Source: an uncultured Rickettsiales bacterium (GTDB lineage: Bacteria > Myxococcota_A > UBA796 > UBA9615). Taken from it: a DNA stretch of 64,000 nucleotides. Each line of letters starts with the position of its first letter. The stretch's first letter is position 1. Location of the stretch: contig CAYQEG010000010.1 of assembly GCA_964416435.1 (NCBI GenBank), positions 3,488 through 67,487 on the forward strand. Direction: 5' to 3'. Both the position numbers and the translations under genes were made by a program. Shown one piece after another: positions 6,447 to 41,850 of the stretch. The notes below the pieces were generated by a model. That model was not told where the DNA came from, made no database searches, and saw only the letters and a program-made list of their open reading frames with translations.

Positions 6447-8090
6447 TCACCAGGAAGCATAGCCGGCCAGGATCGCCCTCAGCTCGGCATATCCCAGGGT
6501 CTCCGGTGGCGGGTCGATGCTGAAGAGCCCGAAGTACGTCCCAGCGTGGATCCCGAGGTTCAGGTCGATGCCCACGGGGCCGCCCAGCCGCCAGCGGTGA
6601 CCGACGCCGAAGTCGATCAAATTGTTCCAGAAGTCGTTGCGCGCGTCCTTCGCGATCCGAACCTCGCCGAACGGCGCCCAGGCCACGGGGCCCGTCACCA
6701 GGTAGTGGAGGCTGACCCGCCCTCGGGCCGAGATGAAGAAGTTGTGCTCCGGGCGCAGCAGGTAGATCGCCTCGGCGTACACGTCTCCGCAGAACTGGAG
6801 GGTCGTGTAGACGGGCGCCCCGAACTCGAGCCGGCAGCCCGGGCTCTCGATGGCGAACACCGCCCCCGCGCGCACGTCGAGTTGCACCTTCTCCTGGCCG
6901 ATGTCGACCAGCGGGAACGCGGCGCCGACCTGGGCGAACAGGCTGACGCGGCGCTTCCAGAAGCGGAACAACACGCCGCCGCCGAGCATCGCGGTGTTGT
7001 CCGCGTAGATCAGCGGGAAGCCCTGCGGTCCCTGGGCTCGGGACGCCACATCGCGCGAGATCTGGAAGAAGATGTAGGGGTCCAGATCGACGTGCGGGAT
7101 CGGGTGGAGGTAGCCCCGCAGCCGCAGGAACGGCACGAAGTTGCTGAACGTCGTCGGGTGGAACCGGTGCCAGGCGTACCCCTCGAAGTAGACGTCGGCC
7201 CAGACCGGCTTCGCCGTGTAGCGCAGCTCGGCGCGGGCCTGCTTCGCCAGGTCCTCGTCATCGCCCCCGGCCGCCGCCTGGAAGTGGGAGCGGGCCGCGA
7301 AGTCCTTGCGATTGCCCTTGTCGACGTAGCCCCGCAGCAGCTCCACCAGCTGCACGTCGGCCCCCTCCTCGACCGCGCGGTCGTAGGCGGCGTCCGCCTC
7401 CTCCCACTCCTCGGCCTCGCGGTGGGCGTTGCCCTCCTCCAGGGCGAGGTACCAGTCGGGCTGCGGGGGCGGCCGGCTGGCCGCGAGCTGGGCCTCGGCC
7501 TGCGCCGCGACCTCCTCGTTGGGGCCGACCGTCGCCTCCTCGAGCAGCTCCAGCGCCTTCTCCTTGTCGCCGTCGAGCAAGGCGACGTAGGAGCGCTCGA
7601 ACGCGATCACCTGGGGGTCCGCCCCCAGCTCGGCGGCGAACTTCAGCGCCGCGTCGGCGCGGGCGAGCTCGCCCAGGTGCTTGTACTGCTCGGCGGTGGT
7701 CCGCCAGTGGGCCTGGAGGGCCTCCAGCTCCGTCTGGATCCGGGCCGAGAGCTCTTCGTCCGGGCCCGCGGCGGCGCGGATGAACGCCTTGCCGGAGCGC
7801 ACCTTGTCCGCGTCGGCGAGCCACTGGTAGCCGAGCTCGGCGGTGATCCGCTGGGCCGTGTCGGGGTCGGCGTCGGCGTCGACCGCGGCGTCGGCTCCCT
7901 CGAGCAACACCCGGAGGTCCTCCGGCTCGGCGCCGGCCTCCTTCTGCCCGTAGTACTCGCTCATCCACTGGTCGACCGTCCAGCCGGCGCGGTCGTCGTC
8001 CTGGGCGAGGGCGGGGGCGGCGATCAGCGCCACGAGCAGGGCCAACAGAGCGAACCGCTGTCGATGCCCGTGCTGGGTCCGCTGCCTCAT
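6447..8090 (-). CDS. Outer-membrane polysaccharide-export porin with N-terminal TPR-like helical domain (AlgK/AlgE- or PgaA/BcsC-like architecture)
   Basis: Signal peptide ending ALAQ; helical Ala/Glu-rich N-terminal half; beta-rich C-terminal half ending in aromatic AGYASW. Confidence 0.5.
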   Translation of the reverse strand: MRQRTQHGHRQRFALLALLVALIAAPALAQDDDRAGWTVDQWMSEYYGQKEAGAEPEDLRVLLEGADAAVDADADPDTAQRITAELGYQWLADADKVRSGKAFIRAAAGPDEELSARIQTELEALQAHWRTTAEQYKHLGELARADAALKFAAELGADPQVIAFERSYVALLDGDKEKALELLEEATVGPNEEVAAQAEAQLAASRPPPQPDWYLALEEGNAHREAEEWEEADAAYDRAVEEGADVQLVELLRGYVDKGNRKDFAARSHFQAAAGGDDEDLAKQARAELRYTAKPVWADVYFEGYAWHRFHPTTFSNFVPFLRLRGYLHPIPHVDLDPYIFFQISRDVASRAQGPQGFPLIYADNTAMLGGGVLFRFWKRRVSLFAQVGAAFPLVDIGQEKVQLDVRAGAVFAIESPGCRLEFGAPVYTTLQFCGDVYAEAIYLLRPEHNFFISARGRVSLHYLVTGPVAWAPFGEVRIAKDARNDFWNNLIDFGVGHRWRLGGPVGIDLNLGIHAGTYFGLFSIDPPPETLGYAELRAILAGYASW

Positions 8091-8215
8091 CGTCCTCCCG
8101 AACGCATGGGTATCCCCACCGACACCCTGCCCCGAAGCCTAGTGGATTGGCAAGTTGTGGAACGTCTCAGAGAGTCTCGATGTGCCCGAACTCGCTGGGG
8201 AAAGCGGTGAACGGC

Positions 8216-34009: not shown

Positions 34010-34771
34010 ATGCAGACCCAGAACATCGCCGTCTTCGCCGACTTCGAGAACGTCGCCATCGGCGCCAAGGACGCCAAGTTCGACACGTTCAAGATCGAGG
34101 TCGTGCTCCAGCGCCTCCTGGACAAGGGGAGCGTCATCATCAAGCGGGCCTACGCCGACTGGACCCGCTACAGCAGCTCCCGCAAGCCGCTGCACGAGCA
34201 CGGGTTCGAGCTGATCGAGGTCCCCCACGTCAGCTACGGCGGCAAGAACTCGGCCGACATCAAGCTGGTCGTCGACGCGATCGATCTGTGCCACACCAAG
34301 CCCCACGTGCAGGTCTTCGCGATCATCTCGGGCGACTCGGACTTCAGCCCGCTGGTCGCCAAGCTGCGTGAGAACGGCCGGTTCGTCATCGGGGTGGGCG
34401 TCCGGGAGAGCACCAGCGGCCTGCTGGTCGAGTCCTGCGACGAGTTCATCTTCTATGACGACCTCGTCGCCAAGAAGAGGCGCACGAGGAAGGCGCGGGC
34501 GAAGAAGCCGGCGGCCGATTCGAAGGGCAACGAGGCGCTCGACCTGGTGGTCGACGCGGCCGAGGCGCTGCTGCGGGACAAGGGCGAAGCGGTCTGGGGT
34601 TCGCACGTCAAGCAGGTGATCAAGCGCAAGCGGCCGGACTTCGACGAGACCGCGTTCGGCTATCGGGGCTGGGGGGACCTGCTCGAGGACGCCGCCCGCA
34701 AGGGTCGCCTGGAGGTGACGCGCGACTCGGCGTCCGGCGGCTACCGCGTCACCGCGGTGGCGGACGCGTAG
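34010..34771 (+). CDS. NYN (LabA-like) domain + OST-HTH/LOTUS domain protein
   Basis: IAVFADFENV...ISGDSDFSPLV NYN core; C-terminal LDLVVDAAEALL...WGSHVKQVIK OST-HTH-like. Confidence 0.65.
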   Translation: MQTQNIAVFADFENVAIGAKDAKFDTFKIEVVLQRLLDKGSVIIKRAYADWTRYSSSRKPLHEHGFELIEVPHVSYGGKNSADIKLVVDAIDLCHTKPHVQVFAIISGDSDFSPLVAKLRENGRFVIGVGVRESTSGLLVESCDEFIFYDDLVAKKRRTRKARAKKPAADSKGNEALDLVVDAAEALLRDKGEAVWGSHVKQVIKRKRPDFDETAFGYRGWGDLLEDAARKGRLEVTRDSASGGYRVTAVADA

Positions 34772-35117
34772 CGCCGCAGCGTCCCCCTCCAGCTGAGAGG
34801 GGGGTGATGCGGGCTGAGACTACACCCGCTTCATGACCGGTCTCTCGTCGCCGTACCCCGGAAGTGGCAACCGGGTTGGCTCCTTGTCCGCCGCGTCTCC
34901 GCGGCATCCGATCAGGACCGCCTTTGTTGAGGGGGAGGCTGTTCCCCCATCGTCACGCCTCGCTCGGCGCGCGGCTTCCGTCCGACGCAGGCCTTGCGCC
35001 GGGTCTTCTACCCGCAACTCGCCAACCGCTTCGGCCTTGGGAGCGTCCGCGGCCTCCGTTCCCCGAGGGGCGGAGGTTTGGGCCCTTCGTGAGGGCATGA
35101 CCGGCAGGGTCTTTCCT

Positions 35118-35193
35118 TGGCAACGAACGTCGGATTCGCACCGACGACCGCCTGGTCAAGAGCCAGGTGCTCTACTTGCTGAGCTAGTTCATC
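35118..35193 (-). tRNA. tRNA-like gene, anticodon CUU (Lys), 76 nt with encoded CCA; noncanonical G37, G55, A18; may be a pseudo-tRNA
   Basis: Hand-folded cloverleaf: acceptor GATGAAC/GTTCGTT (2 GU pairs), D-stem GCTC/GAGC, anticodon stem CCTGG/CCAGG with loop CUCUUGA, variable loop CGGTC, T-stem GTCGG/CCGAC with loop TGCGAAT, discriminator G, CCA. Confidence 0.45.
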
Positions 35194-35623
35194 GTCACGC
35201 CTCAGCGCCCTGCCCGCCGTTCCGCCGCCTTTTGAGCGACCGAATGCGACACTGCGACTGGCGTTCGCCCTGGCGGGCTTTACCCGAAGGTCGGGATTCG
35301 GGGAGTTCCACCCGTCACCCCGGCTCCTGCGACGCGGCCCTTGGCTTCCACCTCTCGGACTCGCGCGCTACCGGTTGGGACTCCCCGACAATCCGGTTGG
35401 AGTCGATCGGCCTCCGACGTCCCCGTCGGGTGCTTCCGGTGACCTCCTTGCGGGCCGAAGCCCCGGTTTGGACCACCGTCCCCGCCCTCCCGGGCGGGCC
35501 GACCACCGGACCGCCGGATCGGACCGCCAGCTGACGATCCGCCCTGGGTCAGGTGTCCCTCGGCTTGCGTAGACGGTCCCGTTCCCGGGCGACAGGGCTG
35601 TGACATCCCTGCCTTCCGCCGGG

Positions 35624-36784
35624 TCACCCCGACGTCTCCTGACGACCCCACGCGGCCGGTCGTGCTCCGGGCGGCCCGGCCCGCCGGCGCGCGCCCCCGG
35701 CGGCGCCCCGCCCCGGCCGGGGGGGGGGGGGGGGGGGCGGGGCCGCCCGGGGGCGGGGGGCCCGGGGGGGGGGGCCCCCACGGCGACTGCGGTTCATGTC
35801 CGCCAGGGTGGTGCGCGTGTGGTGGTCGATGTTGGACTCGGAGAGCAGCTCGGCGACCGAGCCGGGCTCGAAGAAGCCCTCGTCGAACCCCTCCGCCCGG
35901 GCGCGCTCGGTGGCGGCCATGACCGCGGCAAACGCGCGCGCGACTTCGACCCGGTCGGCGTCGGCCGGGCAGACCCGGTCGAGCAGCTTCAGGCCGAACC
36001 CGAGCAGCGCGCCGCCGGTGCACGGCACGGGCGGCACGTAGAGCTTGCCGCCCCGGTAGTCGATCTCCAGGGGGTCGAGGACCGTCGGCCGGAACCCGGC
36101 GAGGTCCTCCATCGTGATCGAGCCGTTGGGCGGGCCGAATTCGTCGACCAGCGCCTGGGCGTATCGACCCGAGACGAACGGGCCCGAGCCGTCGAGCGCG
36201 AACGCCTCCAGCGCGTCGCCCATCGACGGGATCGTGACTCGCATCCCCTCCCCCAGCGGCCGACCGTCGGGGTTGAACAGCGCGTCGCTGCACGGACCGA
36301 CCGACGTGATCGCTTCGAGCATCGTCGAGACGACCTGGGTGCCGTGAGTGGCGTCCCATCCGCCCCGGGCGAGCCGGATCGCGGGGCGGGCGATCGTCTC
36401 CAGGGGCAGCCGCCCCCAACGGCTCCACAGCAGCTCGAGCCCCGGGGCCACCGTCGGCACGGCGGTCGAGCCGCGGCCGGCGTGGAACAGCTGCGTGGTC
36501 GGGCCGTAGTCCACCTCCAGGGCGCGGAAGTCGCGAGGCTTCAAGCCGACCCCGAGCCCGGGGAACACCGACATCGAGTTGACGATCTGGACGCGCCCGG
36601 TCGCCCCCTCTCGGACGGTGGCCACCATGCCGCCGCCCAGCCCCATCAGCAGGGGCTCGCACACGCCCGCGGCGAGGGCCGCAGCCACCGCCGCGTCCGC
36701 CGCCGTGCCGCCCGCGCGCAACACCTCAACCGCTGCATCCGTCGTCGACGCGTGGCCCGTGGCCACCGATCCCAGGTCCGCCAT
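35624..36784 (-). pseudogene. Gamma-glutamyltranspeptidase family gene, large-subunit region only; reading frame dissolves into poly-Pro in G19/G11 homopolymer tracts. Truncation, frameshift or assembly error
   Basis: N-terminus matches GGT (TAADAAVAAALAAGVCEPLLMGLGGGMVA); homology ends near 35782; the remainder translates the poly-G tract; no small-subunit coding sequence downstream. Confidence 0.5.
35719..35775. repeat. G19 and G11 homopolymer tracts
   Basis: Runs of 19 and 11 G directly visible at 35719-35737 and 35764-35774. Confidence 0.9.
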
Positions 36785-36899
36785 CCATCGAAGGTATCAG
36801 GCCGATCGCGGCCCCGCGACCACCCGGCGCCGGATCGCGGTCCGGGCCGCGCTGCCTGGGTGCCCCAGCCCCGAGGAGCGGGAGACCGGGTCTCCGCGA

Positions 36900-37829
36900 T
36901 CAGAACGCCGGCGCCTCCTCGACCCAGACCGTGCGGCCGAAGTTGCCGTCGTTCTCCTCGCACGAGGTCGCGCTGCCGCGCAGCCACAGCGACACGGTGT
37001 GGGGGCCCGTCGCGAGGCCCTCGAAGACCGTCTCGACCGCGATCGCGGTCGAGCCGTAGTTGACGGCCCGCCCTCCGCTGGAGTCGTCGGCGAAGTCGTC
37101 GACCCGCAGCTGGTAGTCACAGAACTGCCCCGCCGTGCCCACCATCGTCACGTGGCTGTTCCAGGTGAGCTGCACGTCCGTCTCGGCGGCCACCTTCACG
37201 AACTCCCCGACGTCCCGCACGTGGATGTACGAGAAGGTCGGCGAGAGGGTCGGGTTGCCGGTGTAGTTGAGGCGGGTCCGAACCGTGACGTTGGCGTCCA
37301 CCTCGGCCTGGAGCAGGCCCAGGTCGGCCGCGAGCGCCCCGAGCGCCGACGCCCCGGCCGCGATGTTCGCGGCGTTGGTGGAGATGTCGCCGGCGTTGGT
37401 GGAGATGTTCGTCGAGTTGGTGTCGATCTCGACGGTGTGGGTGTCGATCGCGGCGGCGTGGGCCGCCAGCCCGCCGATCAGGCTCACGATGGCCGCGTCG
37501 TTTTCGCTGATGGCGCCGTCCAGGGTGTCGATGTCCGACGCGTGGGCGAGCAGGGCGGCGTCCTGAACGGCCTCGGCCTCCTCCAGGGCGGCGATCCGCG
37601 CCTCGAACGCGGCCGGGTCCAGGTCGTCGATCTGGGCGCCCTGGGCGGTCAACTCGGTGCGCGCAGCGGCCAACTCGTCCGCCAGCTCGTCCAGGGCCGC
37701 CTGGACGTCCTCGCTGTCCAGGCCGCTCTCCTCGCCGTCGTAGGCGACGTCAGCCGCCCCGGTCCCCTGGCAGGCGACGAGGGGCAGGGCGAGGAGCCCG
37801 ATCAGCAGGTTGAGGGGGTGCTTGCTCAT
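36900..37829 (-). CDS. Lipoprotein with coiled-coil region and Thr/Asn-rich pseudo-repeats (start taken at internal Met MSKHPLN)
   Basis: Lipobox LPLVACQG; IDTNSTNISTNAGDISTNAANIAAG repeats with matching DNA-level repeats; beta-rich C-terminus. Confidence 0.5.
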   Translation of the reverse strand: MSKHPLNLLIGLLALPLVACQGTGAADVAYDGEESGLDSEDVQAALDELADELAAARTELTAQGAQIDDLDPAAFEARIAALEEAEAVQDAALLAHASDIDTLDGAISENDAAIVSLIGGLAAHAAAIDTHTVEIDTNSTNISTNAGDISTNAANIAAGASALGALAADLGLLQAEVDANVTVRTRLNYTGNPTLSPTFSYIHVRDVGEFVKVAAETDVQLTWNSHVTMVGTAGQFCDYQLRVDDFADDSSGGRAVNYGSTAIAVETVFEGLATGPHTVSLWLRGSATSCEENDGNFGRTVWVEEAPAF

Positions 37830-38010
37830 GACGACCTCCGATGCGGCGCGCTGGCGGAGGCGCACAGCGCCGGGCGATCGAGGTCGCAAGAGCTGTGCCT
37901 TGCAGCGATCGGGCTACTGCGACGCCGCGGTCCGGCGCCGAGGGAGGTCGGGCGTGGAGCGCTGCACACCGGGGCGGGAGGAGGCGCACAGCCCCCCGCC
38001 CCGGAGCGGG

Positions 38011-38772
38011 TCAGCTCCCGGAGAGGATCGCGAGCGCCTCGTCGACCACCTGAGGAGCCCCCGCGAGGGTCGGGACCCGGTCCCAGATGCTGACCGACCG
38101 ACCCTCGAAGTCGACCACCACGCCGCCGGCCCGCTCCACCAGCAGGTAGCCGGCGGCGACGTCCCAGGGGTGGTTGCGAGCGGCGTGGAAGCCGAACCGG
38201 CCCTCGGCGGCCCAGGCCAGGCCGAGGCTCGCGCAGCCCATCGCCCGCACCCCCGCGAACCGATCCGCGGCCAGGAGCAGCGGCACGACCGCGTGGGACA
38301 GGCCGACGGACGCGAGGGCATACGCGGGGGCTCGGGCGCTCACCGACAGCGGCGCCCCGTCGACCGTGGCGGGGCCGTCCGCGGTCGCGTGGAAGAGCCT
38401 CCCGGTGCCCGACTCCAGCAGCCACCCCTCGGCGAGCTCACCCGCCTCCACCCGGCCCAGCGAGATGCCCCACCAGGGCACGCCGGCGGCGAAGTTGTGG
38501 GTGCCGTCGATCGGGTCCAGGACGAACGCGTCTCCCCGCACTGGCGTGCTCGACGGCCGGGCCCCCTCCTCCGAGATCACCGCCACCCCCGGGAAGTGCT
38601 CGGCCAGCCCCCGGGTGACCAGGCGATCGACCCGCAGGTCGCACTCGGTGACCAGGTCCACGCCGCGGCCGGCGCCCTCCTCCCGCTTGTCGTGCAGCTC
38701 GAGCCGGGCCGCGCCGGACCGCTCGGCGACGGCTCGCGAGGCGCGCCGGAGGAGGTCGGGGACCGGGTTCAC
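38011..38772 (-). CDS. suhB: Inositol monophosphatase family protein (SuhB/ImpA-like); GTG start overlapping the hemD stop (GTGA)
   Basis: VLDPIDGTHNFAAGVPWWGISLG and WDVAAGYLLV IMPase motifs. Confidence 0.7.
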   Translation of the reverse strand: MNPVPDLLRRASRAVAERSGAARLELHDKREEGAGRGVDLVTECDLRVDRLVTRGLAEHFPGVAVISEEGARPSSTPVRGDAFVLDPIDGTHNFAAGVPWWGISLGRVEAGELAEGWLLESGTGRLFHATADGPATVDGAPLSVSARAPAYALASVGLSHAVVPLLLAADRFAGVRAMGCASLGLAWAAEGRFGFHAARNHPWDVAAGYLLVERAGGVVVDFEGRSVSIWDRVPTLAGAPQVVDEALAILSGS

Positions 38773-39539
38773 CGCCGGCCCCACCAGGTGGCGACGGCGT
38801 CCACGAGGGCCGCGATGGACGCCTCGGACGCCTCGACGGCGACGCTCAACCCGAGGTCGCGGCACGCCTCCGTCGTCACCGGCCCGATGGAGGCGACCGC
38901 GACGCCGCGCAGCGCATCGGCGATCGGCCGGTCCAGCGCCGCGGCGAGGTGCCGGACCGTCGCGCCGGACGCGAAGGTGATCGCGTGCATGCCCGCGCCG
39001 ACGGCGCGCCGCAGCGGCTGCGGATCCGACGGCGGGGTCGACCGGTAGGCCGTGACGACGTGCACCGAGCTGCCCCGGGACCGCAGCCCGTCGGGGAGCA
39101 CCTCACGCGCCTGCTCGGCTCTCGGGAGCAGCCAGCGGAACCCATCGAGCCGGGCGCCCATCGCCGCGTCCAGCGCGGTCAGCAGCCCCTCGGACAGGAA
39201 GCGCTCGGGCACGACGGAGACGTCGACGCCACGCGCGGCGAGGGCCCGGGCGGTGGGGTCCCCGGTCACGGCCACGACGCGGCCGGAGAACACGCCGGGG
39301 TCGACGCGGGCCAGGGTTCGCTCGACGGCGTTGACCGACGTGAACAGCACGCCGTCCCAGCCGTCAGGCAAGGCGGCGAGGGCCGCGTCCAGCGGCTCGA
39401 AGGACTCGGGATCGACGATCTCCAGGCAATGCAGCTCGACCGGCTCGGCGCCCGCGGCCGCGAGCAGGCGGGCGAGCTTGCTCGCCTGGGCCCGGGACCG
39501 GGTCACCCCCACGCGGGCCCCCGAGAGCGGGCCGGTCAC
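38769..39539 (-). CDS. hemD: Uroporphyrinogen-III synthase
   Basis: HemD-like 256 aa; position immediately after hemC; overlaps the hemC stop. Confidence 0.65.
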   Translation of the reverse strand: MTGPLSGARVGVTRSRAQASKLARLLAAAGAEPVELHCLEIVDPESFEPLDAALAALPDGWDGVLFTSVNAVERTLARVDPGVFSGRVVAVTGDPTARALAARGVDVSVVPERFLSEGLLTALDAAMGARLDGFRWLLPRAEQAREVLPDGLRSRGSSVHVVTAYRSTPPSDPQPLRRAVGAGMHAITFASGATVRHLAAALDRPIADALRGVAVASIGPVTTEACRDLGLSVAVEASEASIAALVDAVATWWGRR

Positions 39540-40492
39540 GCCTGGGAGAGCACGGCTCGGGCGCCTCGATCGACCAGGTCGCGGGCGAGCACCCGCCCCA
39601 GGCGGCGGGCCCCCTGCAGCGTCGCCTCCCCCTTTCGCTCGGCCCTCAGGGCCTGGGCGCCATCGGGGGACAGCACCATCGCCGACAGGCTCAGGGTCGT
39701 GTTGCCGGCCTCCGCCCGGACCGCCAGCGGGATCGAGCAGCCGCCTTCGAGCACGGACAGGACCGTGCGCTCGGCCTCCACCTCGATCCGGGTCGACTTG
39801 TGCTCCAGGGGGCGGACCAGCTCGAGGACGTCGTAGTCACCGGCGCGCCCCTCGATCCCGATCGCCCCCTGCCCCGGCGCAGGCAGCCACGGCGGGTCGA
39901 GCCGAACATCGATCCGGTCGCCCAGCCCGAGGCGGTCGAGCCCGGCGCAGGCGAGCAGGAGCGCGTCGTACTGGCCCTCGTCGAGCTTGCGGAGCCGGGT
40001 CGGCACGTTGCCGCGCACGTCCCTCGTCACCAGGTCCGGCCGCAGCCGGTGGAGCATCGCGCTCCGGCGCAGGCTGCTCGTGCCGACGACGGCCCCTTCG
40101 GGGAGCAGATCGACGCCCCCCCGCGACAGCGGCAGCCGCTGCACGGCCGCCTCGCGGAGCTCCGGCTCGAGCACCAGCGCGTCCCGGGGATCGGCCCGCT
40201 TGGGCACCGCGACGACGCCCAGCCCCTCGGGGAGCTCCGTCGGCAGGTCCTTGAGGGAGTGCACTGCGATGTCGACCGTGCGGTCGTGCAGCGCCTGCTC
40301 CAGTTCGGCCGTGAACAGCCCCTTGCCGCCGACCTCGGGGAGCGGTCGATCGACCACCCGGTCGCCCTTGGTGGAGTAGATCTCGATGTGCACGTCGAGG
40401 GTCGGGTGCAGGGTGCGGAGCATGTCCGCGACGGCGTTGCTCTGCCACAGCGCCAGCTTGCTCCCGCGGGAGCCGATCACGAGCCGGTCCAT
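39536..40492 (-). CDS. hemC: Porphobilinogen deaminase (hydroxymethylbilane synthase)
   Basis: MDRLVIGSRGSKLALWQSN...GGKGLFTAELEQALHD...GTSSLRRSAML...APGQGAIGIEGR; 318 aa; the track ORF is over-extended upstream. Confidence 0.85.
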   Translation of the reverse strand: MDRLVIGSRGSKLALWQSNAVADMLRTLHPTLDVHIEIYSTKGDRVVDRPLPEVGGKGLFTAELEQALHDRTVDIAVHSLKDLPTELPEGLGVVAVPKRADPRDALVLEPELREAAVQRLPLSRGGVDLLPEGAVVGTSSLRRSAMLHRLRPDLVTRDVRGNVPTRLRKLDEGQYDALLLACAGLDRLGLGDRIDVRLDPPWLPAPGQGAIGIEGRAGDYDVLELVRPLEHKSTRIEVEAERTVLSVLEGGCSIPLAVRAEAGNTTLSLSAMVLSPDGAQALRAERKGEATLQGARRLGRVLARDLVDRGARAVLSQA

Positions 40493-41850
40493 CAGGCTCC
40501 TTCGTCGTCGGCCGCCGCGGCAGCGGGGGCGACGGGTTCGTCGTCGGCGAGCTCTCGCACCGACAGCAGGGTCGCCTGGACGCCCAGGAGCGCCGCGGCG
40601 TGGTCGAGCAGATCGATCTCGCCGGTCTCGCCCAGCTCCTTGATCCGCGACATCGGGTGATGCAGGTACCGCTTGGCGATCGCGCCGGCCATGCGCTCCA
40701 GGGCGACCGCGATCTGCTCCTGGGCGTCGCCGGGCAGGCCGTCGAGCACCGGGCGCAGCCCCGCCAGCGTGCGCTCCGCCTCCTGGTGGCCCTCCCGGGC
40801 GACCCGCTGGCCCACCGCGCGGAGCAGCGGGGCGACGTGCACGCGGGCGAGCACCCGCCCGAACGCGTCGGTCTCTTCCTTGACGAGCCCCTCGGCGAGG
40901 GACGCTTCCCGCTGACGCGCCTCCCGGCCGGACTCGACCACCCGCCCCAGATCGTCGATGTCGAACAGGTAGACGGAGTCGAGATCGTTGATCGCCGGGT
41001 CGAGGTTCCGCGGCACCGAGATGTCGATCAGGAGCAGCGGCCGACCCTTGCGCGCGCGCCGCACGCTCTTGACGTCGGCCCGGTTCAGGATCGGCTCCCG
41101 AGCGCCGGTCGAGGCGACGACGATGTCCGCCTTCTTGAGGAACTCGACGCGGCGGCTCCAGGGGAGCACCGACGCGTTGAGGGGGCCCGCCACGTCGGCG
41201 GCCCGCGACATCGTGCGGTTGGCGACGTACAGGTCCCGGCAGCCCCGATCGGAGAAGCCCCTCAGCGCCAACTCCGCCATCTCCCCCGCGCCCAGCAGCA
41301 GGACCGGGTGGCGGTGGAGGTCCTCGAACACGGCCCCCGCCATGTCGACAGCGGCCCGCGCGACCGACAGCGTGGAGGCCCCGATGTCGGTCTCGGTCCG
41401 GACCCGCTTGGCGACGGCGAAGCCCTTGTGGAGCAGTCGATGGAGCACCGGCCCCACCGTGCCGACCTCCGCCGCCACGCGGTACGCCTCCTTGACCTGG
41501 CCGAGGATCTGGGACTCGCCGAGCACCATCGAGTCGAGCGAAGAGCAGACGCGGAAGAGGTGCTGCACCGCCTCGGCGTCGTCGTAGGCGTACAGGTGCT
41601 CGTCGAGGCGGGCGGACGGCAGCCCCGACCAGTCGGAGATCGCCGCCTCGACGATGCCCGGCTCGGCTCGGACCTGGACCGTGAGGACCTCGACGCGGTT
41701 GCACGTCGACACGAGCACGACCTCCCGGATGCCGGGCTGGGCGTGCAGCTCCTGCATCACGGCGGTCATCCGATCGTCCGGCAGCGACAGGCGTTCTCGG
41801 ACTTCGACCGGCGCGACCTTGTAGCTGGTCCCGACGAGCTTGAGCCTCAT
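40492..41850 (-). CDS. hemA: Glutamyl-tRNA reductase
   Basis: MRLKLVGTSYKVAPVEVRE start; GAGEMAELAL NADPH-binding region; ATGA overlap with upstream hemX-like gene. Confidence 0.85.
   Translation of the reverse strand: MRLKLVGTSYKVAPVEVRERLSLPDDRMTAVMQELHAQPGIREVVLVSTCNRVEVLTVQVRAEPGIVEAAISDWSGLPSARLDEHLYAYDDAEAVQHLFRVCSSLDSMVLGESQILGQVKEAYRVAAEVGTVGPVLHRLLHKGFAVAKRVRTETDIGASTLSVARAAVDMAGAVFEDLHRHPVLLLGAGEMAELALRGFSDRGCRDLYVANRTMSRAADVAGPLNASVLPWSRRVEFLKKADIVVASTGAREPILNRADVKSVRRARKGRPLLLIDISVPRNLDPAINDLDSVYLFDIDDLGRVVESGREARQREASLAEGLVKEETDAFGRVLARVHVAPLLRAVGQRVAREGHQEAERTLAGLRPVLDGLPGDAQEQIAVALERMAGAIAKRYLHHPMSRIKELGETGEIDLLDHAAALLGVQATLLSVRELADDEPVAPAAAAADDEGA

Follow-up and report, generated by a model that had tools for sequence, protein, structure and literature searches.

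A noncoding island in a marine bacterial contig is probably a divergent GOLLD-family RNA gene with a tRNA-like linker insert

The window analyzed here is a 64,000-nucleotide (nt) stretch of contig CAYQEG010000010.1 (positions 3,488 to 67,487, forward strand; assembly GCA_964416435.1), assigned to an uncultured Rickettsiales bacterium. A first-pass annotation, made from the sequence alone, had singled out a noncoding island of about 850 nt at positions 34772 to 35623, with a tRNA-like cloverleaf and a 14-nt direct repeat. With a probability of roughly 0.8, we interpret this island as one minus-strand gene for a GOLLD-family RNA of ~855 nt, with a tRNA-Lys(CUU)-like insert in its linker. Weinberg et al. 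2009 is reportedly the reference for GOLLD RNA. From 5' to 3', the predicted RNA has the layout of a GOLLD: a 5' domain, a hairpin whose loop is UCAAAAG, a linker that holds the tRNA and is closed by a covarying pairing of seven base pairs (bp), a conserved multi-helix 3' domain, and a terminal GUGUAGUCUCAGC hairpin.

The assignment to GOLLD comes from a permissive Rfam scan of positions 34600-35900, in which 34,811-35,259 on the minus strand matches the full length of model RF02032 (positions 1-416), with 86.7 bits and an E-value of 9e-23. The similarity of the 3' domain runs from end to end, in sequence as well as structure, and takes in both the terminal GUGUA(A/G)UCUCAGC hairpin and the UCAAAAG loop; in the cmscan alignment the embedded tRNA falls within the variable linker of the model. 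The first-pass annotation had proposed that the remainder of the 850 nt could hold another structured RNA, and had suggested Rfam as a check; the check yields a full-length match, below the curated cut-off, in which the tRNA is one part of the GOLLD. The same scan gives no match in the island to ROOL, a giant phage-associated RNA that is likewise found near tRNA genes and forms a hollow multimer (PMC12286853), but whose sequence and secondary structure are unlike those of the window RNA.

Other GOLLD loci were retrieved with the 3' motif GGAYAAG ... GUGUARUCUCAGC, which returned 120 viral loci of 33-54% G+C, and with a G+C-favoring variant of the motif, which returned 32 metagenomic loci of up to 62% G+C. 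Eight of the higher-G+C loci were scored against RF02032, and all eight match GOLLD (156.9, 156.9, 156.8, 155.8, 144.9, 140.1, 114.8 and 92.2 bits); the values of 114.8 and 156.8 belong to loci L230 and L233, respectively. Because these relatives run from 157 down to 92 bits, the window RNA lies at the low end of an unbroken series of GOLLD scores. Its G+C content is 67-70% (67% over the Rfam-matched part), in contrast to 33-62% in the 152 fetched loci; that of the host genome is 72%. A 3' pattern specific to the window found no matches among viral contigs, and blastn of the island against phages and plasmids gave matches through the tRNA only.

The helices of the window RNA are supported by comparison with L230 (Ga0315316_10005188), a metagenomic locus of 65% G+C with a GOLLD at 7294-8150 on the minus strand. 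The two RNAs align over ~860 nt, at 63% identity (blastn E-value 1e-71), with conserved blocks interleaved with variable stretches. RNAalifold predicts 232 base pairs from this pairwise alignment, and 55 of the 232 have changed on both sides yet are kept. Controls in which the 3' partners are displaced by 1-3 columns have just 2-7 double changes, and column shuffles give 27.6 +/- 3.7. That is, compensatory base changes support the helices, as judged from two sequences and from a structure predicted from both. The seven assemblies that are identical across the RNA carry no covariation signal.

No open reading frame (ORF) with the coding signature of the genome in third-position G+C (GC3) lies between 34772 and 35623, so the island is noncoding as proposed; its right edge has to be moved, since conservation with L230 extends slightly farther, to ~35,660. 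A hypothetical protein of 233 (or 100) amino acids (aa) on the opposite strand (window 34833-35534, plus; L001 10824-11525) was considered and rejected as a spurious ORF, because a search among 5.8 billion proteins returned no homolog besides itself. The parts of the RNA, with the adjoining hairpin and the two repeat copies, are as follows:

34805..35660, minus strand: whole predicted GOLLD-family RNA, ~855 nt (Rfam match, full-length alignment to L230, 55 compensatory pairs, common 5' motifs)
35260..35660, minus strand: 5' domain, the variable half of GOLLD (alignment with L230, L239, L244, L205, L143, L233, L247 and L235)
35198..35259, minus strand: two-tier hairpin with UCAAAAG loop, RF02032 positions 1-62 (cmscan alignment, compensatory changes relative to L230)
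35103..35214, minus strand: linker, closed by a 7-bp pairing that brackets the tRNA (RNAalifold helix 30)
35118..35193, minus strand: embedded tRNA-like module, anticodon CUU (ARAGORN, Rfam tRNA model, position of 16 other linker tRNAs)
34811..35101, minus strand: conserved 3' domain, RF02032 positions ~132-416 (cmscan alignment)
34811..34827, minus strand: 3'-terminal hairpin GGGUGUAGUCUCAGCCC, the most conserved GOLLD motif (cmscan; the motif retrieved the 120 viral and 32 metagenomic loci)
35190..35203, no strand assigned: repeat copy A, GAGGCGUGACGAUG on the RNA strand (sequence reading)
34948..34961, no strand assigned: repeat copy B, which holds the 3' strand of the junction-closing helix of the 3' domain
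34783..34804, no strand assigned: G+C-rich hairpin CCCCCUC-N7-GAGGGGG, between the stop codon of the neighboring NYN gene and the 3' end of the RNA

The 5' domain (~400 nt) lies outside the coverage of RF02032. Its first element is a hairpin with a GUGA (GNRA) tetraloop; GGAAGG and then ...CCGUCUACGCAAGCC come next, as they do in other GOLLDs. Indeed, an identical order of elements, namely a GNRA hairpin, an (A/G)AAGG block, further hairpins and a G(G/U)C...GCAAGC block, recurs with covarying stems in L239, L244, L205, L143, L235, L233 and L247, and two of these, L233 and L247, which have the 5' GNRA hairpin and the AAAGG and GCAAGC blocks in common with the window, exceed the Rfam cut-off. 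An nhmmer search with the 5' domain finds L230 (E-value 1e-124) and L239 (E-value 0.002). Because the 5'-domain motifs match those of other GOLLDs, the RNA is predicted to span ~35,660-34,805, or ~855 nt; both ends are estimates, taken from the limits of conservation with L230 and the other GOLLDs. The length agrees with the published GOLLD size of >800 nt (PMC12286853).

At the linker, the closing pairing joins GGCAGGG (35208-35214) to CCCUGCC (35103-35109), and in L230 GGUAGCG to CGCUGCC; it thus includes a G-C to C-G swap between the two RNAs. A pairing of 6-7 bp with quite different sequences recurs here across many GOLLDs, i.e., it covaries family-wide. In the nested consensus of Rfam the corresponding columns are unpaired, as this pairing and the outer stem of the UCAAAAG hairpin would cross. 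The tRNA insert is placed between this hairpin and the AAAGAC block. In the 3' domain, the junction-closing helix pairs GUCAUGCC (35094-35101) with GGCGUGAC (34952-34959), and L230 keeps it with different bases, GUCUCGAG with CUCGGGGC. The window RNA is thus like known GOLLDs in its length of ~850 nt, in combining a variable 5' domain with a conserved 3' domain, and in having the UCAAAAG hairpin, the linker, the junction-closing helix, the terminal hairpin, the 5' GNRA hairpin and GCAAGC. It differs from them in several conserved single-stranded blocks, with, for example, GGAAAGAC in place of GCAAAGAC and CCCAAGG in place of CGCAAGG.

Just beyond the 3' end of the RNA, the hairpin at 34783-34804 could serve as a bidirectional terminator, though it is without a U tract. 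As to the 5' end, three viral GOLLDs of ~54% G+C (L205, L143 and L146) have promoter-like boxes, TTGACA-N17-TAxxxx, ~25-35 nt upstream of the first conserved GOLLD block, just 5' of their 5' hairpin. Nothing similar to these boxes is found upstream of the window RNA or of L230, and the promoter type of these two GOLLDs presumably differs from that of the viral ones.

The cloverleaf noticed in the first-pass annotation is recognized by two programs. ARAGORN reports a minus-strand tRNA-Lys(ctt) there (35118..35193), which scores 58.5 bits with the Rfam tRNA model; no other convincing tRNA lies in the window. The stems are of 7, 4, 5 and 5 bp, the acceptor stem being fully paired with two G-U pairs. 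The D loop is AGCAAGUA (A18), the 7-nt anticodon loop, which contains U33, is CUCUUGA (G37), and the T loop is UGCGAAU (G55); the 3' end has a discriminator G and an encoded CCA (GCCA tail). The arms, the encoded CCA and the deviations at 18, 37 and 55 had been read correctly. A canonical elongator tRNA-Lys has the universal elbow bases G18 and U55, and A37 next to a U36 anticodon; the tRNA in the window instead has A18, G55 and G37. A second ARAGORN call, a tRNA-Ser(cga) at 38051-38139 (minus), goes unreported in the Rfam gathering scan; it has abnormal D and T loops (gcggcg, accctcg), its bases lie inside an inositol monophosphatase gene in locus L249, and it is probably a false positive in G+C-rich coding DNA.

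The site of the insert is shared. Measured from the 3' end, the linker tRNAs of 16 GOLLD loci (13 metagenomic and 3 viral) share one position, at 319-355 nt, and among the fetched GOLLDs they are confined to the higher-G+C members. Eight anticodons are represented (Lys-CUU, Ile-GAU, Ile-UAU, Arg-UCU, Val-UAC, Glu-UUC, Met-CAU and His-AUG), the commonest identity being tRNA-Lys(CUU), with two distinct sequences over five other loci. That tRNAs reside inside the GOLLD linker has already been published, and they have been discussed as possible cargo facing the interior of a cage (PMC12286853; PMC12990946; PMC6582537). Known examples of this arrangement, with the tRNA in the linker (J13/15), include the GOLLDs of Mycobacterium/Mycolicibacterium tRNA arrays (PMC6582537; PMC12990946 citing Morgado et al. 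2020); L205, L143, L146 and L219-L248 were added by the present analysis. The window tRNA resembles them in its location inside the linker-closing pairing. By contrast, neither the window RNA nor L230 has a tRNA array around it, the window tRNA has a fully paired acceptor stem and an encoded GCC(A), whereas most of the other linker tRNAs have 1-3 unpaired acceptor positions and no CCA, and the elbow of the window tRNA is the A18:G55 variant.

Comparison with L230 suggests that the linker tRNA is under selection for its shape and not for its decoding identity. L230 resembles the window in its domain order, its linker tRNA with G37 and a GCC tail, and its cellular gene context; it differs in its canonical G18/U55 elbow, in an extra 22-nt hairpin in the 5' domain, in its higher RF02032 score, and in having no 14-nt repeat. 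Between the two tRNAs, six of the seven acceptor pairs, two anticodon-stem pairs and one T-stem pair have changed on both sides, and the anticodon is CUU in the window and AUG in L230, while loop bases 32, 33, 37 and 38 are identical. The arms have thus been kept by compensatory change while the anticodon differs, and the difference in the closest relative argues against a fixed decoding role. The anticodon AUG (A34, nominally His) is also that of the linker tRNA in L239, and is unusual among bacterial tRNAs; the L239 tRNA has degenerate D and T loops (AAUUGCA, CUCGUAC), yet an ACCA tail.

The elbow bases were examined in a survey of 250 distinct tRNAs, from loci every one of which had been fetched because of GOLLD or the window. 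U55 is found in 241, of which 237 have GG in the D loop and 4 do not, and all seven G55 tRNAs have AG in place of this GG. Because the association is complete among the G55 tRNAs, A18 and G55 of the window tRNA are, on comparative grounds, best read as a coordinated variant elbow, not as decay. The G55 tRNAs come from L236, L244, L189, L144 and the window (35118-35193), with the T loops UGCGAAU, UGCGAAC, AGCGUAA and AGCGUUA; L236 has three of them, two being ordinary array members (tRNA-Leu). Every G55 example lies in or beside a GOLLD locus. Both the change of anticodon with a kept fold and the linkage of A18 to G55 go beyond the published GOLLD accounts surveyed.

The 14-nt direct repeat, CATCGTCACGCCTC (GAGGCGUGACGAUG on the RNA strand), is present as described, with exactly two occurrences in the window (34948-34961 and 35190-35203). 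When the window is shuffled, the 14-mer has a mean of 0.06 matches, and none of 100 shuffles reaches two; likewise, in a set of 200 shuffles none yields a repeat as long as 14 nt. Copy A overlaps the 3' strand of the outer stem of the UCAAAAG hairpin, the conserved GUGAC and nucleotides 1-4 of the tRNA; copy B is ~230 nt downstream, within the conserved 3' domain. All 16 other linker-tRNA GOLLD loci examined, L230 included, lack a comparable repeat; their longest shared strings are of 6-9 nt, and are equaled in 11 to 198 of 200 shuffles. Some of the identity derives from family blocks, namely GUGAC before the tRNA and G(U/C)GACG(A/G)UGG after the helix, and the rest may be due to chance or to a small conversion event.

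The surroundings of the RNA require a correction to the contig itself. Three features flank it:

34010..34771, plus strand: NYN/OST-HTH (LabA-like) gene, convergent with the RNA (Pfam: NYN E-value 9e-34, OST-HTH weak)
35670..35790, no strand assigned: poly-G/C low-complexity tract, which differs among assemblies and contains a chimeric junction at ~35,735-35,757
35735..36784, minus strand: N-terminal two thirds of a GGT gene, imported by misassembly (Pfam positions 2-301 of 512; identity to L249)

The first-pass annotation had described a GGT gene that loses its small subunit. The ORF at 35624-36784 (minus) does cover only positions 2-301 of the 512 of the GGT profile; the truncation, however, is not biological. 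Six other assemblies of the same population are 100% identical to the window in the NYN gene and the RNA, across 34,772-35,665, and part from it at ~35,670-35,757. Beyond this split, three of the six run into a gene for a trypsin/PDZ protease of 925 aa, along with a DUF4846 gene, and the other three stop at this point; the protease region is found nowhere in the window. The 386-aa GGT product of the window is recorded from a single contig. An intact GGT of 546 aa, in the same 90%-identity cluster, is encoded away from the RNA, on scaffold_617 of the same sample, with hemA, hemC and hemD as neighbors and hemB and polA after it. From 35,735 to 41,000, starting within the GGT gene, the window is 99.8% identical to this intact locus (L249). 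Because the other assemblies put the protease beside the RNA and the intact GGT lies elsewhere, the window contig is chimeric at ~35,735-35,757, and the truncated GGT is an assembly artifact outside the RNA locus. The poly-G/C tract at the join consists of G and C only and includes a ~19-G run; no two assemblies agree in its length and sequence (window 35670-35790; L001 11640-11790; L002; L003 11630-11720). L003, from which the poly-G/C stretch as such is absent, has the cleanest version, a G+C-rich imperfect palindrome with a repeated GGCCAGGCCGG, between the stop codon of the protease and the 5' end of the RNA.

On the other side, the neighbor had been correctly named as an NYN/OST-HTH gene. 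As a partner of the RNA it was rejected, the adjacency being incidental: synteny is not conserved in relatives, and NYN genes 78-87% identical on other contigs lie in unrelated contexts with no island after them. With the NYN gene as an anchor, genomes in GTDB gave 80 loci of 50-59% identity and no close relative; these loci were not scanned for GOLLD. The genes of the window are cellular, including MBOAT, Ser/Thr kinase, FG-GAP/MopE, DnaJ-TPR, leucyl aminopeptidase, multihaem cytochromes, amylase, HEAT and AstE. When the seven immediate neighbor proteins were scanned, no PHROGs family with a phage structural or replication function was matched. The nearest named homologs of two window proteins, 45-63% identical, are from metagenome-assembled genomes (MAGs) of Deltaproteobacteria, Myxococcota and Bradymonadales; the host, an uncultured marine bacterium, has its nearest named relatives among MAGs of Deltaproteobacteria and Myxococcota. 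Members of the published GOLLD alignment consulted come from phages, Mycobacterium genomes and streptococcal (pro)phages. The usual setting of a phage, a prophage or a tRNA array, which is an association and not a strict requirement, is thus not that of the window. Cellular genes also surround L230 (TetR, amine oxidase, SIR2, GNAT, RDD) and the GOLLD of L233 (6320-7200, minus; glutamate synthase domain, NUDIX, methyltransferase), the latter without a linker tRNA, and neither locus has a tRNA array or phage genes in the 9-13 kb of sequence examined.

These data bear on several other explanations. One, along the lines of the first-pass annotation, is a free-standing, diverged or pseudo-tRNA-Lys(CUU) gene in ordinary intergenic DNA, with the repeat, likened there to an att-site duplication, as the scar of an integrated element. 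Both tRNA programs do call a tRNA, the exact repeat overlaps its 5' end and exceeds anything seen in the 200 shuffles, and the right-hand neighbor looks disrupted. But the sequence on either side of the tRNA fits the GOLLD model and is conserved in L230 through compensatory changes, so the tRNA is a module of the GOLLD linker; the disrupted GGT gene is an artifact, and no integrase or other mobile-element gene is found among the neighboring proteins scanned. Nor is the repeat an att duplication of tRNA-targeted integration, because the 242 nt that separate its copies belong to the conserved core of GOLLD and are not an inserted element; it overlaps the tRNA at the 5' end and not the 3' end, its second copy is a strand of a conserved 3'-domain helix, and no relative has it. 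This explanation is scarcely credible. It is also quite improbable that the RNA is a decaying, non-functional relic of a phage-borne GOLLD in the chromosome, an idea to which the lowest Rfam score of the series, several mismatched consensus pairs, the lack of a phage or tRNA-array context, and a tRNA off consensus at 18, 37 and 55 would lend themselves. The 55 pairs kept by double changes relative to L230, six of the seven acceptor pairs among them, argue instead for selection on the fold, and the oddities at 18 and 55 form a coordinated variant. In addition, the G+C content of the RNA (67%, Rfam-matched part) is near the 72% of the host, which suggests long residence in a high-G+C genome, cellular or viral.

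Two further proposals accept the GOLLD assignment and concern its parts. In one, the GOLLD is a precursor or carrier, from which RNase P and a 3' nuclease free the tRNA for decoding as tRNA-Lys(CUU); this is compatible with the RNA being a functional GOLLD and differs on the purpose of the tRNA. A full cloverleaf, a 7-bp acceptor, a discriminator base, an encoded CCA and 58.5 bits are what such a tRNA should have, other A18:G55 tRNAs are ordinary array members beside GOLLDs (the two tRNA-Leu in L236), and linker tRNAs as stored cargo are a published speculation (PMC12286853, PMC12990946). We nonetheless regard it as unlikely, given the CUU and AUG anticodons of the closest pair within otherwise identical loop positions, and given that many other linker tRNAs have imperfect acceptors and no CCA. 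Furthermore, G37 and G73 would be unexpected for tRNA-Lys. In Mycobacterium aubagnense, the embedded pseudo-tRNA is undetected on its own (PMC6582537). In the other proposal the repeat is a switch, copy A replacing copy B in the pairing with GUCAUGCC at 35094-35101, so that a closed linker would alternate with a folded 3' domain. The copies are identical over 14 nt, both are able to form the same 8-bp helix, and such a repeat is improbable by chance within the RNA. The absence of the repeat from the other 16 linker-tRNA loci, the contribution of family-conserved blocks to its identity, and the fact that the alternative helix would cross the linker-closing pairing and break the outer stem of the UCAAAAG hairpin make a switch very improbable.

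We return to the reading of the island as a GOLLD gene, against which several points also weigh. The score of 86.7 bits is well short of the curated gathering score of RF02032 (150 bits), and several consensus pairs are mismatched in the cmscan alignment; because of the shortfall, the default gathering-threshold scan of the window reports the tRNA and not GOLLD. L230 is the only full-length relative found, so the covariation comes from two sequences, and since these sequences also supplied the predicted structure, the share of positions that are paired is overestimated; an excess of double changes is far less easily produced by construction. The minimum-free-energy z-score of the RNA is just -1.8, which is uninformative at its G+C content, and scans for a consensus promoter and terminator at the locus found none. 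The perfect acceptor stem and encoded CCA are compatible with release of a working tRNA, and the formation of a cage with inward cargo is extrapolated from distant homologs.

With regard to this last point, cryo-EM structures of GOLLD (PMC12286853, and those reviewed in PMC12990946) reveal closed homo-oligomeric cages, namely a 14-mer for env-38 and 8- to 12-mers for the S. agalactiae 3' domain. By analogy, the window RNA would probably self-assemble into a hollow multimeric cage, and the linker with its tRNA may point into the interior. The tRNA would, by comparison with relatives, be kept for its shape, with four arms and an elbow that are maintained while the anticodon varies.

GOLLD is among the largest of bacterial noncoding RNAs, was lately shown to build RNA-only cages, and has been described as phage-associated. 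At least two or three GOLLDs now stand among ordinary cellular genes with no nearby tRNA array. Divergent high-G+C members under the Rfam cut-off stay unannotated, and gene callers put a spurious ORF over the window copy. A caution extends to MAG contigs in general, as a poly-G/C tract here produced a chimeric join that mimics a truncated gene. For the family, the retention of a tRNA shape under a changing anticodon, albeit in two sequences, bears on the published idea of tRNA storage. More tentatively, and as a doubtful proposition at present, the window, L230, and perhaps L239 and L233 could represent a cell-resident GOLLD lineage outside phages and tRNA arrays, in which the tRNA is a structural handle or bait. 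If so, the tRNA fold and elbow would be selected, in line with the A18:G55 covariation and the compensatory stems, and the anticodon would be free to drift; the duplicated 14-mer of the window might, by alternative pairing, tie the folding of the 3' domain to the linker state; and the role of the GOLLD cage would be to display or conceal an object with the shape of a tRNA, not to store a tRNA for decoding.

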